From a virus: a stretch of DNA of 64,000 bases. A program made the position numbers and the translations under genes. How positions within the stretch are numbered: the stretch's first letter is position 1; every line of letters begins with the position of its first letter. Positions 15,706-27,043 of this stretch are shown one piece after another. A model generated the notes under the pieces. The model had not been told where the DNA came from and did no database searches. It saw nothing but the letters and a program-made list of their open reading frames with translations. The stretch spans positions 26,403-90,402 of the IMG/VR virus record IMGVR_UViG_3300012668_000143. One strand, written 5' to 3'.

Positions 15706-16197
15706 CTATGCCTTCGCAAATGCTTCAAGTGTCTTTGCCAGCGGTAGTGCTTGATGTGCTGTTGTAACGTGCGCTTCGATGCGCTTGATGTTCGGCTGCG
15801 ATGCGAACGAAGTCAGCGCACCCATCATCGACATAAAGGCGTTCTGCTTGATCTTGGATTCGTTCGAGAGCTTGTCGAATTCGACCGCAGCCAGCTTGCG
15901 AATTGAACGACGCGATACTCGTCTGATGCGCCTCAAGTCTCCCTCCGAGGACGCGATAATGTCGTCATCCTTCAGCCGTGTGACGCCGACATTCCTGATG
16001 GATGCGAAGACCATCCGCCGGTCGTACAGCGCCTTATGAATCGCCGATACGAGAATGTGTCGGCTCCGGTATTGAACGTCGATACCGACGAGGCCGGATA
16101 GCTCTGTGTATTGAATCTCGTCTCCGACTTTTGCTGCGATCAGTCGCTCGAAGATAAGACGAGCATCGACTGATAGTTGAAACTGTGGGCGTGCCAT
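15706..16197 (-). CDS. Uncharacterised basic protein, accessory to the RAMP/pentamer-array module
   Basis: Own RBS (AGGAG) fused to the end of array 4; Arg-rich helix RRIRRVSRRSIRKL; possible wHTH-like N-terminus. Confidence 0.75.
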   Translation of the reverse strand: MARPQFQLSVDARLIFERLIAAKVGDEIQYTELSGLVGIDVQYRSRHILVSAIHKALYDRRMVFASIRNVGVTRLKDDDIIASSEGDLRRIRRVSRRSIRKLAAVEFDKLSNESKIKQNAFMSMMGALTSFASQPNIKRIEAHVTTAHQALPLAKTLEAFAKA

Positions 16198-16215
16198 TTG
16201 AATCTCCTAGAAAAA

Positions 16216-16280
16216 ACGTTGCGATGCGTTGCGTGGCGTTACTGTGCCAAGTCAAGCCGAGTGCAGTCTTGCCGTGCCGC
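16216..16280 (-). repeat. Pentamer array 4 (13 units, NN+nRY), putative guide RNA
   Basis: Minus strand: GCGGC ACGGC AAGAC TGCAC TCGGC TTGAC TTGGC ACAGT AACGC CACGC AACGC ATCGC AACGT. Confidence 0.88.
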
Positions 16281-16317
16281 TAAACCATACTTCCATACTG
16301 TCCTGCTAATCCCGTAA

Positions 16318-16372
16318 ACCTTGTCTCGCGCAGAGTAGCCAGACTACGCTTTGCACAGCGCCGCGTAGCCGC
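16318..16372 (-). repeat. Pentamer array 3 (11 units), putative guide RNA
   Basis: Minus strand: GCGGC TACGC GGCGC TGTGC AAAGC GTAGT CTGGC TACTC TGCGC GAGAC AAGGT. Confidence 0.82.
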
Positions 16373-16391
16373 TCCTGCTAATTCTGTAAAA

Positions 16392-16456
16392 CCCTTGTCT
16401 TGCGTTGCGTGGCCGCGTCTCGCCCCGTCCAGCCCCGTCTCGCTACGCCTCGTTAA
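16392..16456 (-). repeat. Pentamer array 2 (13 units), putative guide RNA
   Basis: Minus strand: TTAAC GAGGC GTAGC GAGAC GGGGC TGGAC GGGGC GAGAC GCGGC CACGC AACGC AAGAC AAGGG. Confidence 0.88.
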
Positions 16457-16458
16457 AT

Positions 16459-17022
16459 CTACGCATCCGCCCATTTCACTGCATCCACATTAAACCGCCC
16501 ATAAAACCCGTTCTTGATTGGCCTAAATCGCCCAATGCCGATAAACCTTCCGGCCTGTCGCAAGTGCTCGGTAAACACATCCTCAGTGATAGTTTCATCG
16601 AGCACATGAAATGTCACATCACCGCTCCAGTTCTGGATAACCGGCATGCACTTGTCTACCCGCTTCCCGCCGCCGCGTACTCCGTCTGACGGAAGAAACA
16701 GCCATTCTCCTGGAACATCGTTTTTCTTGATTGGCAAGGTCAGCACATCGAACACCAACACGCCGGCCTCAAAGTGCTTTTTGTACGAGTTGTTTCCCTT
16801 TCCAGGTATTTTTACGCCAAGATACTTCGCTGCATCCGATAGGCAGTTCTTGAACGTCATCGGAGGGATGAACACGTTGCCGTCGCTGTCCACATGAAGC
16901 CGCTCTCGCCAAGTGCGCTTCTCATAATCCTTGGGCTGCTCTTTGTCCAACTTCGGCACGTCGTAATGCCGACTTTGGGAATATGGTGAAAAACTGCTTA
17001 GTGTTGCTGTTGCTGTCTTCAA
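16459..17022 (-). CDS. Minimal Cas7/RAMP-like RNA-binding protein (Vipr-like)
   Basis: N-terminal beta strand plus SPYSQSR; FIPPMTFKNCL (cf. RAMP IPgsslKG); C-terminal Gly-rich loop QAGRFIGIGRFRP..NGFYGRF. TTG start with AGGAG RBS; no other cas genes in the window. Confidence 0.8.
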   Translation of the reverse strand: MKTATATLSSFSPYSQSRHYDVPKLDKEQPKDYEKRTWRERLHVDSDGNVFIPPMTFKNCLSDAAKYLGVKIPGKGNNSYKKHFEAGVLVFDVLTLPIKKNDVPGEWLFLPSDGVRGGGKRVDKCMPVIQNWSGDVTFHVLDETITEDVFTEHLRQAGRFIGIGRFRPIKNGFYGRFNVDAVKWADA

Positions 17023-17040
17023 TTTGTATCTCCTGAAAAA

Positions 17041-17105
17041 CCGTTGAGTTGCGATGCGACGCCTCGCCTGGCCGCGCCATGCCTTATCTAGCCGTGTCCT
17101 GCATT
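17041..17105 (-). repeat. Pentamer array 1 (13 units, mostly NN-GGC), putative guide RNA
   Basis: Minus strand: AATGC AGGAC ACGGC TAGAT AAGGC ATGGC GCGGC CAGGC GAGGC GTCGC ATCGC AACTC AACGG. Confidence 0.9.
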
Positions 17106-17112
17106 GATACTT

Positions 17113-17367
17113 TTACCCCACATTCTTCGGCGCCATAGCCTTCAGCACGCGCGCCGCAATACCCTGCAATTCCTCTTCACTCACTTCTTGCTTGAAGTCG
17201 TCAGCAAATGTCTCGCGCACAAACTTTTCGGTGGAATTCCGCAAGGCTTCGTGAGCGACAATCTTCGCTGCGAACGCTTCCTGCGCGACCACAGACCAGT
17301 TGATGCCGTCTAACACGTCCATTCTGGCTTTCAATTCATCAGGGATAGAAATGCTCATTCGTGCCAT
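17113..17367 (-). CDS. Ribbon-helix-helix (CopG-like) DNA-binding protein
   Basis: MARMSISIPDELKARMD...INWSVVAQEAF fits the RHH beta-alpha-alpha pattern; first gene of the module. Confidence 0.8.
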   Translation of the reverse strand: MARMSISIPDELKARMDVLDGINWSVVAQEAFAAKIVAHEALRNSTEKFVRETFADDFKQEVSEEELQGIAARVLKAMAPKNVG

Positions 17368-17397
17368 GTCTTTTCTCGTTTGTTTGAGCGATGATGC

Positions 17398-17425
17398 AGT
17401 ATAGCATGTTTATGCGTATGTGCAA
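17398..17425 (-). promoter_or_regulatory. Sigma70-type promoter of the RHH-array-RAMP operon
   Basis: Minus strand TTGCAC-16 bp-TATACT with an extended -10 TG, 30 bp upstream of the RHH start. Confidence 0.6.
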
Positions 17426-17540
17426 GTTGTTTTGCGCCGTCTAGCCACATGCAGTCCCGTATAGCTCCATACGGCTCCATCAAGCTGTGCTGTGCGTCTC
17501 AATGCGTCGCAATACGTCTCAGTACACAACGGTACACTGT
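17426..17540 (+). repeat. Pentamer array 5 (23 degenerate NN+nRY units), divergent orientation
   Basis: All 23 consecutive 5-mers end in C/T and 21 have a purine at position 4, e.g. CTAGC CACAT GCAGT CCCGT ATAGC TCCAT ACGGC TCCAT CAAGC TGTGC TGTGC GTCTC AATGC GTCGC AATAC. Confidence 0.65.
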
Positions 17541-17565
17541 ATGCGACAATCTTCTACGCCACATT

Positions 17566-17640
17566 CTCGCCGTAGTTCAACGGATAGAACACGTGCCTCC
17601 TAAGCGCGAAATGCCGGTTCGATTCCGGTCGGCGAGACCA
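17566..17640 (+). tRNA. tRNA-Arg(CCT)
   Basis: Folded by hand: acceptor CTCGCCG/CGGCGAG, D arm GTTC/GAAC, anticodon stem CGTGC/GCGCG with loop CT-CCT-AA, T arm GCCGG-TTCGATT-CCGGT, discriminator A plus encoded CCA; 75 nt. Confidence 0.92.
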
Positions 17641-24438: not shown

Positions 24439-27043
24439 CTATGCCTCTGCGTTCTAGCATGATCGTCAGCGTATCGAGCGTGCTGTAGCCTTTCCCCAAT
24501 AGCGCTTGCGCCTCGTTGAAGTCCGCCGGCTTGCTCGACGCCATCAGGAGCGAGAACGGATCGGGAATGTGACGCACTACCGCATCGCCATTGGGCGAGG
24601 AGATCAGCATTTCCGAGTATTGGCCGCCTTCGGTGCGCAGCGACGTGAGCATTTTGAGGACTGCCGGGCTGAAGGAGATAACTTCATCGGCGATGAGTTT
24701 GTCCAGGCTCTTGCGATCCTGCCGCAGCAGTATCTTCCAGTCGGCATTGTTATATGCGGCTTCGGACGCGGCGTTGGCGTAGGCGTCCTGTATCCCTTGC
24801 GTGGCGACGCAAAAAAAGCCGTCGTATTTGCGAGCGCGCCGGTAGCCCTCTTCGATGAATTCGGCGCTTTCCTTGTCGGCCCCAAGGAGTTGCCACGCTT
24901 CGTCGATAACACAGCCCTTTTTCCGTGTGCGCGTGCGGTACATATCGTGCGTAATGCGCGAGATGAGAACGAACAGCACGACGCGGCGCAGATCGGGAGC
25001 GGCCTTCAGTTCTTCCAGTTCAAGTCCGATCATGTCGCCGTCGAGATTGATCGTGGCGCGTCCGTTGAAGTAGGCGCCGTAGATGCCGTCGGTGGTGAAT
25101 GGCTGGAGTTGCTTGGCAAGTTCATAAGCAACCCGCTCCGGTTCGCCGTTCTCGTTGAGCATGCCGGTAAGCAGATAATCGCGGATGAGCGTCGGATTCG
25201 TGTCTTGTCCGTGCTCGTGCCACACCGCAGTAATTGCTTCTCCGATCAGGGCGTATTGAAACGGGGTGAGCGGTTCATTCGGCGATGCCATGCGCGCCAC
25301 CATCGGCTTCAGGAGCCGCAGTTCATCGTTAAAGCTGTTCTCGCTATCCTCTCCTACCCATGAAAACGGGTTGAGGCAGATGTGGCTGTGCGAGGCGAAC
25401 TCGATGAAGGTGCCTTTCTCAAGGGCAATCAGGTTCTTATACGAGCGGCCCACGTCGATCACCCATAGCCTTGCGCCGATGCCGCGATACGAACTGATAA
25501 TTTCATTCATCAGCACCGACTTCCCGGAACCGGACACGCCTGCCACGAAAATATTGAAATTGCCCTGCTTGTTCGAAAAGAAGTCGAGGAAGGTAGGCGT
25601 GCCGCGTCTGCCGAAAAACAGCATCACAGGATCGCCAGCGCCTTTCCATTCGGCGATGACTGGCGACATATCGACTGCGTTTACAGTGGTTTTCGTCGTC
25701 ATCACGCGAAAGCTGCGCAGATCGGCGCGTGCTCCTGCGGTGAGCGTCATCGGCAGACTGGCGTACAAGAGCGGCAAATGCAGTGCGTCGAGCGTGCCGA
25801 TGGTGAAGCGCTCGGAGCGCCAGATGTTTTGCGCAACCTGTGCGGCGCTGTTCATGAGCTTGGTCGGCGCGAACAACAGGAGCGTGTGATACAGCTCTGT
25901 CATCGTGCCGCCGGAGTTAAGCTGGTGTATGACGGTTTTCCAATCGTCGGCCTGCCTGGTAAGCTCCGGCTGATACTTCGCCATCTTGCTTTCGGCGTTT
26001 TGCTGGGCGCGCATCGCCTTCATCTGCGCCTTGGCGTCAACTTCGGCAGGATCGAGCGTGAAGATGCCGCCGCAAATCAGGAACGGGCATGGGTACTGCA
26101 AACCATCATCGAAGAAACTGCCGATGATGTTCGCCATCTGCCATAGTTCTTTTTTGTGCGGGTATTGCAGCACGCCAAAGGCGCGCATGGCAATCCGCTT
26201 GTCCGGCTCCGATACGGTATCAGGCGGTATGCCGAACAGCACTTCGTTATGCTTGACGCGCACGTGCTGACCGAATGGGGTGATTTGCTCCTTGATCGAT
26301 TTGCAATCGTCGTAGGCCATTTCAGGAACCGGCGCGTTGCCGAACATCAGCGCCGGGTCGAGCAATGGTCGAACGAAACTAATCAGTGCGGCTGCGTCGA
26401 ATGGAAACGCGGGCAAGCCTGATGTCTTTAGCTGGCACAGCAAGGTCTCGCGCAACTCAGACATTTCATGGCACAGCCGTTTATCCTGATACGTGCCGCT
26501 GCGCGTTACGGAAAACACGAGACGCATGGTTTTCACTACGTAGTTGCCGGACGGAAACAGCGGTCGTCCTTTGGATCGGCTGACGTAATCGACGCGACGT
26601 TGTGCCAGTTCGCTGAAGAAGGCAGAGGTACGGTCATTGTCAACGGCCACATGGCGCAGGTCTAAATACGCCTGAAACTGGTCATCGAGCAGCGGGCTAC
26701 CGAACAGGCACCATTGCACGCCGCAGCCGGGAGGAATCGGCGTGAATAGCTGCGTCAGCTTGTTGGTCATCTCGCTGTCAGCGCCGGTCTGCGGCAGCAC
26801 TTCGAAGCAGAATGCTACCGAGTTGTCGTTGTAGAAAAGTCCGTTGTCGGCGTCGTATTGATCGTATTTGAGAATGTTGTGAATGCCGTGGATCGATTTG
26901 GCTACATCGTGAATGTCGCCGCCGCCGGCGAGTAGACGCTGTGAGACTTCTACCGGGGCAGATACCTTGCCGTGATCCGGGCCTTTGCCGAGAAACTTGG
27001 CGTCGAAGAAGTCTTTAAAAATGTTTGGCAGAGAGAGTGCCAT
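24431..27043 (-). CDS. traC: TraC VirB4-family ATPase
   Basis: Walker A GVSGSGKS, VIDVGRSY, Walker B VIDEAWQLL, RRARKYDG. Confidence 0.96.
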   Translation of the reverse strand: MALSLPNIFKDFFDAKFLGKGPDHGKVSAPVEVSQRLLAGGGDIHDVAKSIHGIHNILKYDQYDADNGLFYNDNSVAFCFEVLPQTGADSEMTNKLTQLFTPIPPGCGVQWCLFGSPLLDDQFQAYLDLRHVAVDNDRTSAFFSELAQRRVDYVSRSKGRPLFPSGNYVVKTMRLVFSVTRSGTYQDKRLCHEMSELRETLLCQLKTSGLPAFPFDAAALISFVRPLLDPALMFGNAPVPEMAYDDCKSIKEQITPFGQHVRVKHNEVLFGIPPDTVSEPDKRIAMRAFGVLQYPHKKELWQMANIIGSFFDDGLQYPCPFLICGGIFTLDPAEVDAKAQMKAMRAQQNAESKMAKYQPELTRQADDWKTVIHQLNSGGTMTELYHTLLLFAPTKLMNSAAQVAQNIWRSERFTIGTLDALHLPLLYASLPMTLTAGARADLRSFRVMTTKTTVNAVDMSPVIAEWKGAGDPVMLFFGRRGTPTFLDFFSNKQGNFNIFVAGVSGSGKSVLMNEIISSYRGIGARLWVIDVGRSYKNLIALEKGTFIEFASHSHICLNPFSWVGEDSENSFNDELRLLKPMVARMASPNEPLTPFQYALIGEAITAVWHEHGQDTNPTLIRDYLLTGMLNENGEPERVAYELAKQLQPFTTDGIYGAYFNGRATINLDGDMIGLELEELKAAPDLRRVVLFVLISRITHDMYRTRTRKKGCVIDEAWQLLGADKESAEFIEEGYRRARKYDGFFCVATQGIQDAYANAASEAAYNNADWKILLRQDRKSLDKLIADEVISFSPAVLKMLTSLRTEGGQYSEMLISSPNGDAVVRHIPDPFSLLMASSKPADFNEAQALLGKGYSTLDTLTIMLERRGIDA

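Follow-up and report, generated by a model that had tools for sequence, protein, structure and literature searches.

A VIPR module inside a conjugative transfer operon

The window, a 64,000-nucleotide stretch of a 100.6-kb sequence that IMG/VR lists as viral (IMGVR_UViG_3300012668_000143, positions 26,403 to 90,402), contains a module of 1.95 kb (15706-17640) between traF and traH. The module holds a tRNA gene, a tract of phased pentamers, a gene for an RHH protein, further pentamer arrays, vipr, and an accessory gene, arranged as follows.

15706-16197, minus strand: accessory (vap-like) gene, 163 aa
16213-16277, minus strand: vrRNA array D
16335-16369, minus strand: vrRNA array C
16394-16458, minus strand: vrRNA array B
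16459-17022, minus strand: vipr, encoding a 187-aa stand-alone Cas7-like RAMP protein
17048-17102, minus strand: vrRNA array A, directly upstream of vipr, with a purine-pyrimidine (RY) pair in 11 of 11 units
17113-17367, minus strand: RHH protein gene, 84 aa, RHH_12 type (PF26688), with a weak VapB-type NCBIfam match
17398-17425, minus strand: predicted promoter of the RHH-vipr operon (TTGCAC, 16-nt spacer, TGcTATACT with an extended -10; consensus scan)
17426-17540, plus strand: the tract, 23 phased pentamers, with a core of eleven decamers at 17433-17542
17523-17550, plus strand: predicted tRNA promoter (TACACA, 16-nt spacer, TGcGACAAT with an extended -10; start near 17557; consensus scan)
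17566-17640, plus strand: tRNA-Arg(CCT), intact, with an encoded CCA end
17649, minus strand: end of traF (PF13728, E = 1.6e-67)

VIPR systems, which were described in 2026, consist of a Vipr protein, guide RNAs built of GGY/NN pentamers with a constant 3' tail, and an accessory vap gene (bioRxiv 10.64898/2026.04.26.720920, 10.64898/2026.04.26.720927, 10.64898/2026.10.15.759431). The system is CRISPR-like, and its guide RNAs are termed vrRNAs (bioRxiv 10.64898/2026.04.26.720920, 10.64898/2026.04.26.720927). Each of these parts was found at the locus. A profile of the 187-aa protein and 29 homologues matched the PDB entry 36pp, "SUSP1 Vipr protein" (E = 4e-7), and the AlphaFold model of the protein (pLDDT, 88.9) had type VII Cas7 and Csm3 as its top Foldseek matches (E = 5e-7; probability, 1.00). 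Homologues of this Vipr protein number 2678. Arrays A to D, with 7 to 13 consecutive RY units each, are canonical, and conserved linkers and tails accompany B, C, and D; a family tail profile that was built from other loci only gave E values of 3e-7 for array B, 6e-5 for A, 4e-3 for D, and 1.7 for C, so that the tail is clear in three of the four. The accessory gene matched no Pfam family, and its homologues lie beside vipr in 38 of 81 related loci. A search for a CRISPR-type repeat with Tandem Repeats Finder returned none, and the locus, flanked by traF and traH, carries no cas1/2/3 or CRISPR array. With a Vipr protein, pentamer arrays with tails, and a vap-like gene, the whole constitutes a VIPR system.

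The tract thus sits beside a VIPR guide-RNA system that is carried on a conjugative element. The closest plasmid is Denitratisoma plasmid pI (TraH, 64% identical), in which only 40 nt separate traF from traH, so that the 1.95-kb VIPR module is an insertion into an F-type transfer operon. A DNA similarity search against plasmids gave the tRNA as the sole match, and no relatives of TraF were found in IMG/VR. Plasmid-borne VIPR is rare, accounting for 3.8% of systems in the founding VIPR paper, relative to which this module is a rare conjugative-element case. Comparison with soil metagenomes showed the module to be a mosaic of fast-changing and slow-changing parts.

The family used for comparison comprised 81 related loci with 219 arrays and 3477 units; the 179 arrays with at least 14 units were used for the lag test described below. 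Pentamer arrays adjoin vipr in 75 of the 81 loci, and 94% of the family arrays are on the vipr strand, where the family logo reads NN-G(64%)-G(74%)-C(78%) (219 arrays, 81 loci). The scaffold triplets GGC, CGC, GAC, and GGT together make up ∼77% of the 3477 units. The constant triplet (GGC, CGC, GTC, or GGT) differs among loci of one Vipr family in which the proteins are 55 to 78% identical. Locus-specific triplets are as follows.

CGC-NN: L035, L065, and L066
GTC-NN: L038, L064, and L077
AGT/GGT-NN: L052 and L071

As many as 11 arrays are present in some family loci, and single runs can extend to 41 units.

Periodicity and conservation of the tract

The tract had been picked out in a sequence-only reading as a fifth, divergent pentamer array, and a fifth, divergent, phase-locked tract is indeed present within the VIPR locus; all the particulars given in that reading were borne out. 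On the plus strand, all 23 consecutive pentamers at 17426-17540 end in a pyrimidine, which in 21 of them follows a purine (position 4). The window-wide maximum of the RY count over 23 positions spaced by 5 was at most 19 and usually 15 to 16 when the 64 kb were simulated 200 times with a first-order Markov model. Both exceptions are CTC (GTCTC at 17496 and 17516), a triplet that is also among the exceptions in array A (AACTC) and array C (TACTC) on the minus strand. The triplets were also said to be unusual, and they are, being mostly TGC, AGC, CAT, and TAC.

The real repeat unit of the tract is 10 nt. Identity was 0.30 at a lag of 5, 0.55 at 10, 0.31 at 15, and 0.46 at 20 (unit shuffle, p = 0.0002), and at lags 9 and 11 it was far below the value at lag 10. 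The decamer consensus on the plus strand is W-G-C-N-N-C-R-Y-N-N; the tract is composed of two alternating pentamer types, (T/A)GC-NN and C(G/A)Y-NN, with ∼21 to 23 units in all. Information was 0.5 to 1.6 bits at decamer columns 1, 2, 5, 6, 7, and 10 and 0.02 to 0.38 bits at columns 3, 4, 8, and 9. Local duplications are visible as TGCGTCTCAA followed by TGCGTCGCAA (10-nt/5-nt) and as TGTGC, which occurs twice.

This is not a normal guide array of the VIPR family. The difference between lag-10 and lag-5 identity was +0.25 in the tract versus -0.002 ± 0.054 in the family, and none of the 179 arrays reached +0.25. The common scaffolds GGC, CGC, GAC, and GGT were found in only 2 of the 23 tract units, and the other tract triplets each represent 0.6 to 3.4% of family units. 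The first scaffold base of the tract alternates between C and T/A. A search for the family 3' tail at the tract, made with the tail profile in either orientation, yielded E = 24 and 1.7 bits.

Alignments of the tract with arrays A to D had p values of 0.03 to 0.6 under a unit-shuffle null and were not decisive, and a matrix for a 5' "handle" derived from GCAGGA motifs did not single out the tract. RNA folding of neither strand of the tract was better than that of shuffled sequences (z = -0.79 and -0.03), the Rfam search returned only the tRNA, and no second decamer array was found across the 100.6-kb element.

The tract does not evolve like the adjacent guides. Soil contigs from three other studies cover 17106-17590 with 4 to 10 differences over that span, and the tract and the RHH gene are 98 to 100% identical. 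In soil runs that keep the tract, arrays A and D either retain only their conserved tails, with other sequence in place of the rest, or have unit indels; one soil contig has exactly one 5-nt unit deleted from array D, at 16220. The hypervariability between relatives that is expected of the NN positions of vrRNAs was not seen in the tract in these contigs. Pieces of vipr in soil relatives went down to ∼82% identity.

Targets were sought under a 1-nt-skip rule for arrays A to D and both strands of the tract, in the 100.6 kb of the element and in 523 kb from 80 related loci, and nothing exceeded shuffled-guide nulls. Five exact seeds of 9 to 10 units gave no match in IMG/VR and JGI metagenomes, or two identical chance matches with 8 of 30 positions agreeing outside the seed. 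Because arrays A to D were also without a target, the search has little power. Searches of sequencing runs listed no RNA run that carries this region.

One explanation for a conserved but atypical tract is that it is a nonfunctional relic, derived either from an old guide array or from a block of two units duplicated in tandem, that was left when the RHH gene and the tRNA came to adjoin the VIPR operon and that survives only because the divergence of the close relatives is recent. The rare scaffolds, the absence of a tail, and the lack of a detected target are in keeping with this explanation, as are the local 10-nt and 5-nt duplications. Furthermore, the tract is no more conserved than the neighboring RHH gene and so need not be selected for itself. 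However, 6 of the 10 decamer columns are informative and 4 are fully randomized, with no indel across 110 nt, whereas neutral decay should blur columns and phase alike. The first scaffold position is mostly T and C, unlike the expectation for transition-biased decay from G. We consider a relic unlikely.

Promoters, strand, and the neighboring tRNA gene

The tract lies between two predicted promoters, one for the RHH-vipr operon and one for the tRNA gene, and both of these, the best predicted promoters, fire away from it. A stricter scan returned no promoter at the RHH-vipr site. The W-G-C phase of the tract extends weakly leftward to 17403, which is within the predicted RHH promoter, and the last three or four units overlap the predicted tRNA promoter. 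Upstream of the tract, the only predicted plus-strand promoter is a weak one with 7 of 12 matches.

A decamer repeat between two divergent promoters makes a role at the DNA level a serious rival to any role as RNA. According to this alternative, the tract would be 11 to 14 phase-locked 10-bp repeats, one per helical turn, that act as a protein-binding or architectural element between the divergent RHH-vipr and tRNA promoters, and the binder could be the RHH protein, the accessory protein, or a host protein. The tract would never be used as RNA, and the 5-nt RY pattern would be a by-product of the decamer consensus; by our estimate, a random decamer repeat gives an RY pair at 5-nt spacing ∼28% of the time. 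The strict period of 10, the outward-firing promoters, and the running of the W-G-C phase into the RHH promoter are all as this alternative would have it. So is the position of the tract, immediately upstream of an RHH gene that has no homologue in the 81 compared loci, and so is the joint conservation of tract and RHH gene in relatives whose true guides vary.

Arrays of short direct repeats are bound by RHH proteins, among them ParR, omega, and ParG, and iteron operators or centromeres of this type are found in ParR-parC of plasmid R1, the omega heptads of pSM19035, and ParG-parH of TP228. Like these iterons, the tract is a long series of strictly phased short direct repeats that adjoins and overlaps a small RHH gene's promoter, with the repeats at the helical period and their phase reaching the predicted -10 at 17398-17403.

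No relatives of the RHH gene were found in IMG/VR or in JGI metagenomes, and a word-indexed protein search returned only the protein's own cluster; 109 remote RHH homologues match the N-terminal 45 residues. The RHH_12 promoters in 5 of 6 homologue loci (L085, L086, L088, L089, and L090) have ATGCAT/TGCGCAT-type boxes at or adjoining a TTGACA -35, and more copies lie on either side; these boxes are probably the operator of the RHH_12 family. The RHH promoter in the window has GCAT/ATGC boxes in the same place as the homologues (17391-17425), and another lies at 17449-17453. One homologue locus has a different 10-nt repeat, ∼CACCGCGATT, in 4 to 6 copies upstream of the promoter of its RHH_12 homologue (L086, 1379-1438), with a lag-10 identity of 0.54 (p < 0.005 versus shuffles), a further point for a DNA-level role.

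However, the boxes that the RHH homologues share lie in the core promoter here and not in the decamer: the ATGCAT motif common to the homologues' operators does not appear in its consensus, GCnYCRYnnW. The tract also differs from the RHH iterons in having no adjacent partner ATPase and no second site in the 100.6-kb element. With conserved 3-bp blocks at intervals of 5 bp, successive blocks point to opposite sides of the helix, an odd arrangement for proteins that bind one face. In addition, the variable columns fall exactly in the vrRNA register, the exceptions are the family's CTC, and the tract is within a VIPR locus, where such arrays are normally guides. A DNA-level element is somewhat improbable but is the strongest of the alternatives.

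If the tract is read as RNA, the choice of strand is not settled by the RY pattern alone, which is silent on the matter because a purine-pyrimidine pair is its own reverse complement. The plus strand, which is that of the tRNA, fits the grammar of the family better than the vipr strand does. In the plus register, the low-information columns 3, 4, 8, and 9 are the NN slots of a scaffold of three bases followed by two free bases, twice over, and the Y3 position is a pyrimidine in 23 of 23 units. The minus register would put conserved bases in the NN slots and a random base at the first scaffold position. The chance of such a partition of columns is ∼1 in 15, given fixed RY positions. The exceptions point the same way: on the plus strand they read CTC, the second commonest non-RY scaffold in the family (20 of 170 exceptions), and on the minus strand they read TGA, which is found in 0 of 3477 family units. 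The family position model slightly favors the minus strand overall (log-likelihood per unit, -6.48 versus -6.67).

It is nevertheless conceivable that the tract is a guide of ordinary sense, the operon's first vrRNA, made on the minus (vipr) strand when transcription from traF continues through the antisense tRNA. The location of the module within the tra operon makes read-through plausible, and the predominance of the vipr strand among family arrays is what this explanation would predict. The left 14 units score better on that strand (+0.54 log-likelihood per unit), and a 29-nt in-frame alignment to array B is 72% identical (p ∼0.08). Against it are the two TGA units, which would place a purine where Vipr admits only pyrimidines, the conserved columns in NN slots with a random first scaffold base, the poor score with the tail profile, and the location of the best minus-strand promoter downstream of the tract. 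A minus-strand guide is very unlikely.

The tRNA gene on the plus strand was identified with ARAGORN and scored 62 bits with Rfam RF00005 (gathering score, 29); its acceptor stem appears as an inverted repeat at 17565-17572 and 17630-17637. As previously noted from the sequence, the tract ends 25 nt before this intact tRNA-Arg(CCT) on the same strand, the tRNA converges on traF, and the AGG codon that it reads is rare. AGG represents 6.9% of the arginine codons of the element. Genes for tRNA-Arg(CCT) in soil runs are 86 to 97% identical to it and have unrelated flanks, so the tRNA of the element resembles chromosomal tRNAs of likely betaproteobacterial hosts.

The suggestion that the tRNA serves as a processing signal for the tract was upheld in part. 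A search for a terminator-like site in 17368-17640 found none; with no terminator before the tRNA, any plus-strand transcript of the tract would, by established tRNA processing, end by RNase P cleavage. On the other side, the tRNA has its own predicted promoter, so that cotranscription with the tract is not required. By hand alignment, the 30 nt that precede the tRNA agree at 22 of 29 positions with the flank of another tRNA-Arg contig from a soil run. The association with tRNAs that was envisaged for homologous loci came close to being refuted: a tRNA is present within 3.5 kb in only 1 of the 81. In that locus, a related phage contig (L040, 2794-3017), a 20-unit vrRNA with a normal tail is followed after 52 nt by a co-oriented tRNA-Met and then by a capsid gene.

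The 25-nt gap between tract and tRNA is made up of two short stretches that repeat, in direct orientation, sequences from the RHH gene. Positions 17110-17126 and 17551-17567 agree at 15 of 17, and 17255-17266 and 17543-17554 agree at 12 of 12, each pair amounting to ∼0.1 chance event in a 2-kb region. These shared repeats may be a coincidence or the scar of a rearrangement that joined the parts. A "duplicated leader-plus-array unit" was considered and dropped, as the resemblance of 17110-17144 to 17551-17579 and the 12-mer pair were unconvincing over the whole 2-kb region.

The tract and known guide RNAs

The pocket of Vipr admits only pyrimidines at the last scaffold position of a unit, and the pair that is read most strictly is a purine followed by a pyrimidine (bioRxiv 10.64898/2026.04.26.720920, 10.64898/2026.04.26.720927). 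Variants of VIPR with YNNNG or NNNNG repeats are on record, and the YNNNG type keeps just those two positions (bioRxiv 10.64898/2026.04.26.720920, 10.64898/2026.04.26.720927, 10.64898/2026.10.15.759431). As a guide, the tract would keep the purine-pyrimidine pair that Vipr reads most strictly while dispensing with the usual GGC/CGC/GAC scaffolds and the 3' tail. A plus-strand transcript would precede the tRNA in its precursor as a 5' leader, to be removed by RNase P at 17565/17566, and the tRNA would take over the role of the missing tail. The periodicity, grammar, strand asymmetry, position, and conservation of the tract are observed; transcription of the tract, release by RNase P, and binding by Vipr are steps that we infer.

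The reading that we tentatively favor, at somewhat less than even confidence, is that the tract is an atypical, guide-like (vrRNA-like) array encoded on the plus strand in antisense to the vipr operon. On this reading, its sole route to maturation would be the tRNA precursor, and it is probably a guide that is fixed, weak, decaying, or a decoy. Since the tract is conserved while the ordinary guides of its relatives change, and since its scaffolds are rare, such a guide would be a fixed low-affinity, decoy, or decaying one rather than an active, fast-evolving one. The earlier idea of an older, decaying, or decoy guide agrees with the rare scaffold triplets, the missing tail, and the lack of hypervariability.

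A more specific form of this proposal is doubtful. It would make the tract a distinct vrRNA format with two alternating scaffold triplets and no tail of its own, made as an antisense 5' leader of a tRNA, released by RNase P, and kept constant, perhaps to occupy or misdirect the Vipr protein of a rival or to serve as a "housekeeping" guide of the conjugative element. The VIPR system itself is already known, and the tract is at most a variant of it.

The tract can be compared with the published vrRNAs of type II VIPR from Escherichia phage SUSP1 and a Pseudomonas fulva prophage (bioRxiv 10.64898/2026.04.26.720920, 10.64898/2026.04.26.720927, 10.64898/2026.10.15.759431). Both have phased five-base units that keep the RY pair and two free positions, and both are intergenic, have no stable predicted fold, and occur at a locus with a stand-alone Cas7-like Vipr and an accessory gene. 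Unlike the published vrRNAs, the tract has alternating scaffolds with a 10-nt period, no 3' tail or pseudoknot, and a better-fitting strand that is opposite to vipr; it has 23 units compared to 9 to 16, is not hypervariable among relatives, and had no target under the 1-nt-skip rule.

Another parallel is offered by the solo or orphan vrRNAs that satellites and VIPR-null phages carry (bioRxiv 10.64898/2026.10.15.759431). Like the tract, they are guide-like, have their own transcription context (which is a predicted one for the tract), and may be conserved decoys or act against the VIPR systems of rivals. However, solo vrRNAs have a GGY scaffold, a pseudoknot tail, and predicted targets (bioRxiv 10.64898/2026.10.15.759431), none of which the tract has, and the tract is beside a complete VIPR system.

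In small RNAs that are freed from tRNA precursors by RNase P or RNase Z, a downstream processing element likewise would set the 3' end of a guide-like RNA. The tract differs from these in that its cotranscription with the tRNA is presumptive, the tRNA has its own predicted promoter, and a tRNA is nearby in just the one related locus. Arrays of vrRNAs interspersed with hammerheads represent another, self-processing solution (bioRxiv 10.64898/2026.04.26.720920, 10.64898/2026.04.26.720927).

Whether the tract is a guide or a DNA element, it calls for caution with automatic vrRNA callers, as an RY pair at 5-nt spacing beside vipr is insufficient for a guide call. If the tract is a phased repeat that acts at the DNA level, it would be a control region of a VIPR operon, and nothing has been published on the regulation of such operons. 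Transcription and excision of guides are known for very few types of VIPR, systems that were described only in 2026. If the tract is a real guide, then the scaffolds of Vipr guides can be mixed and alternating, tRNA processing by the host can take the place of a guide's own tail, and guides that change fast can be accompanied by a constant one on a conjugative element.
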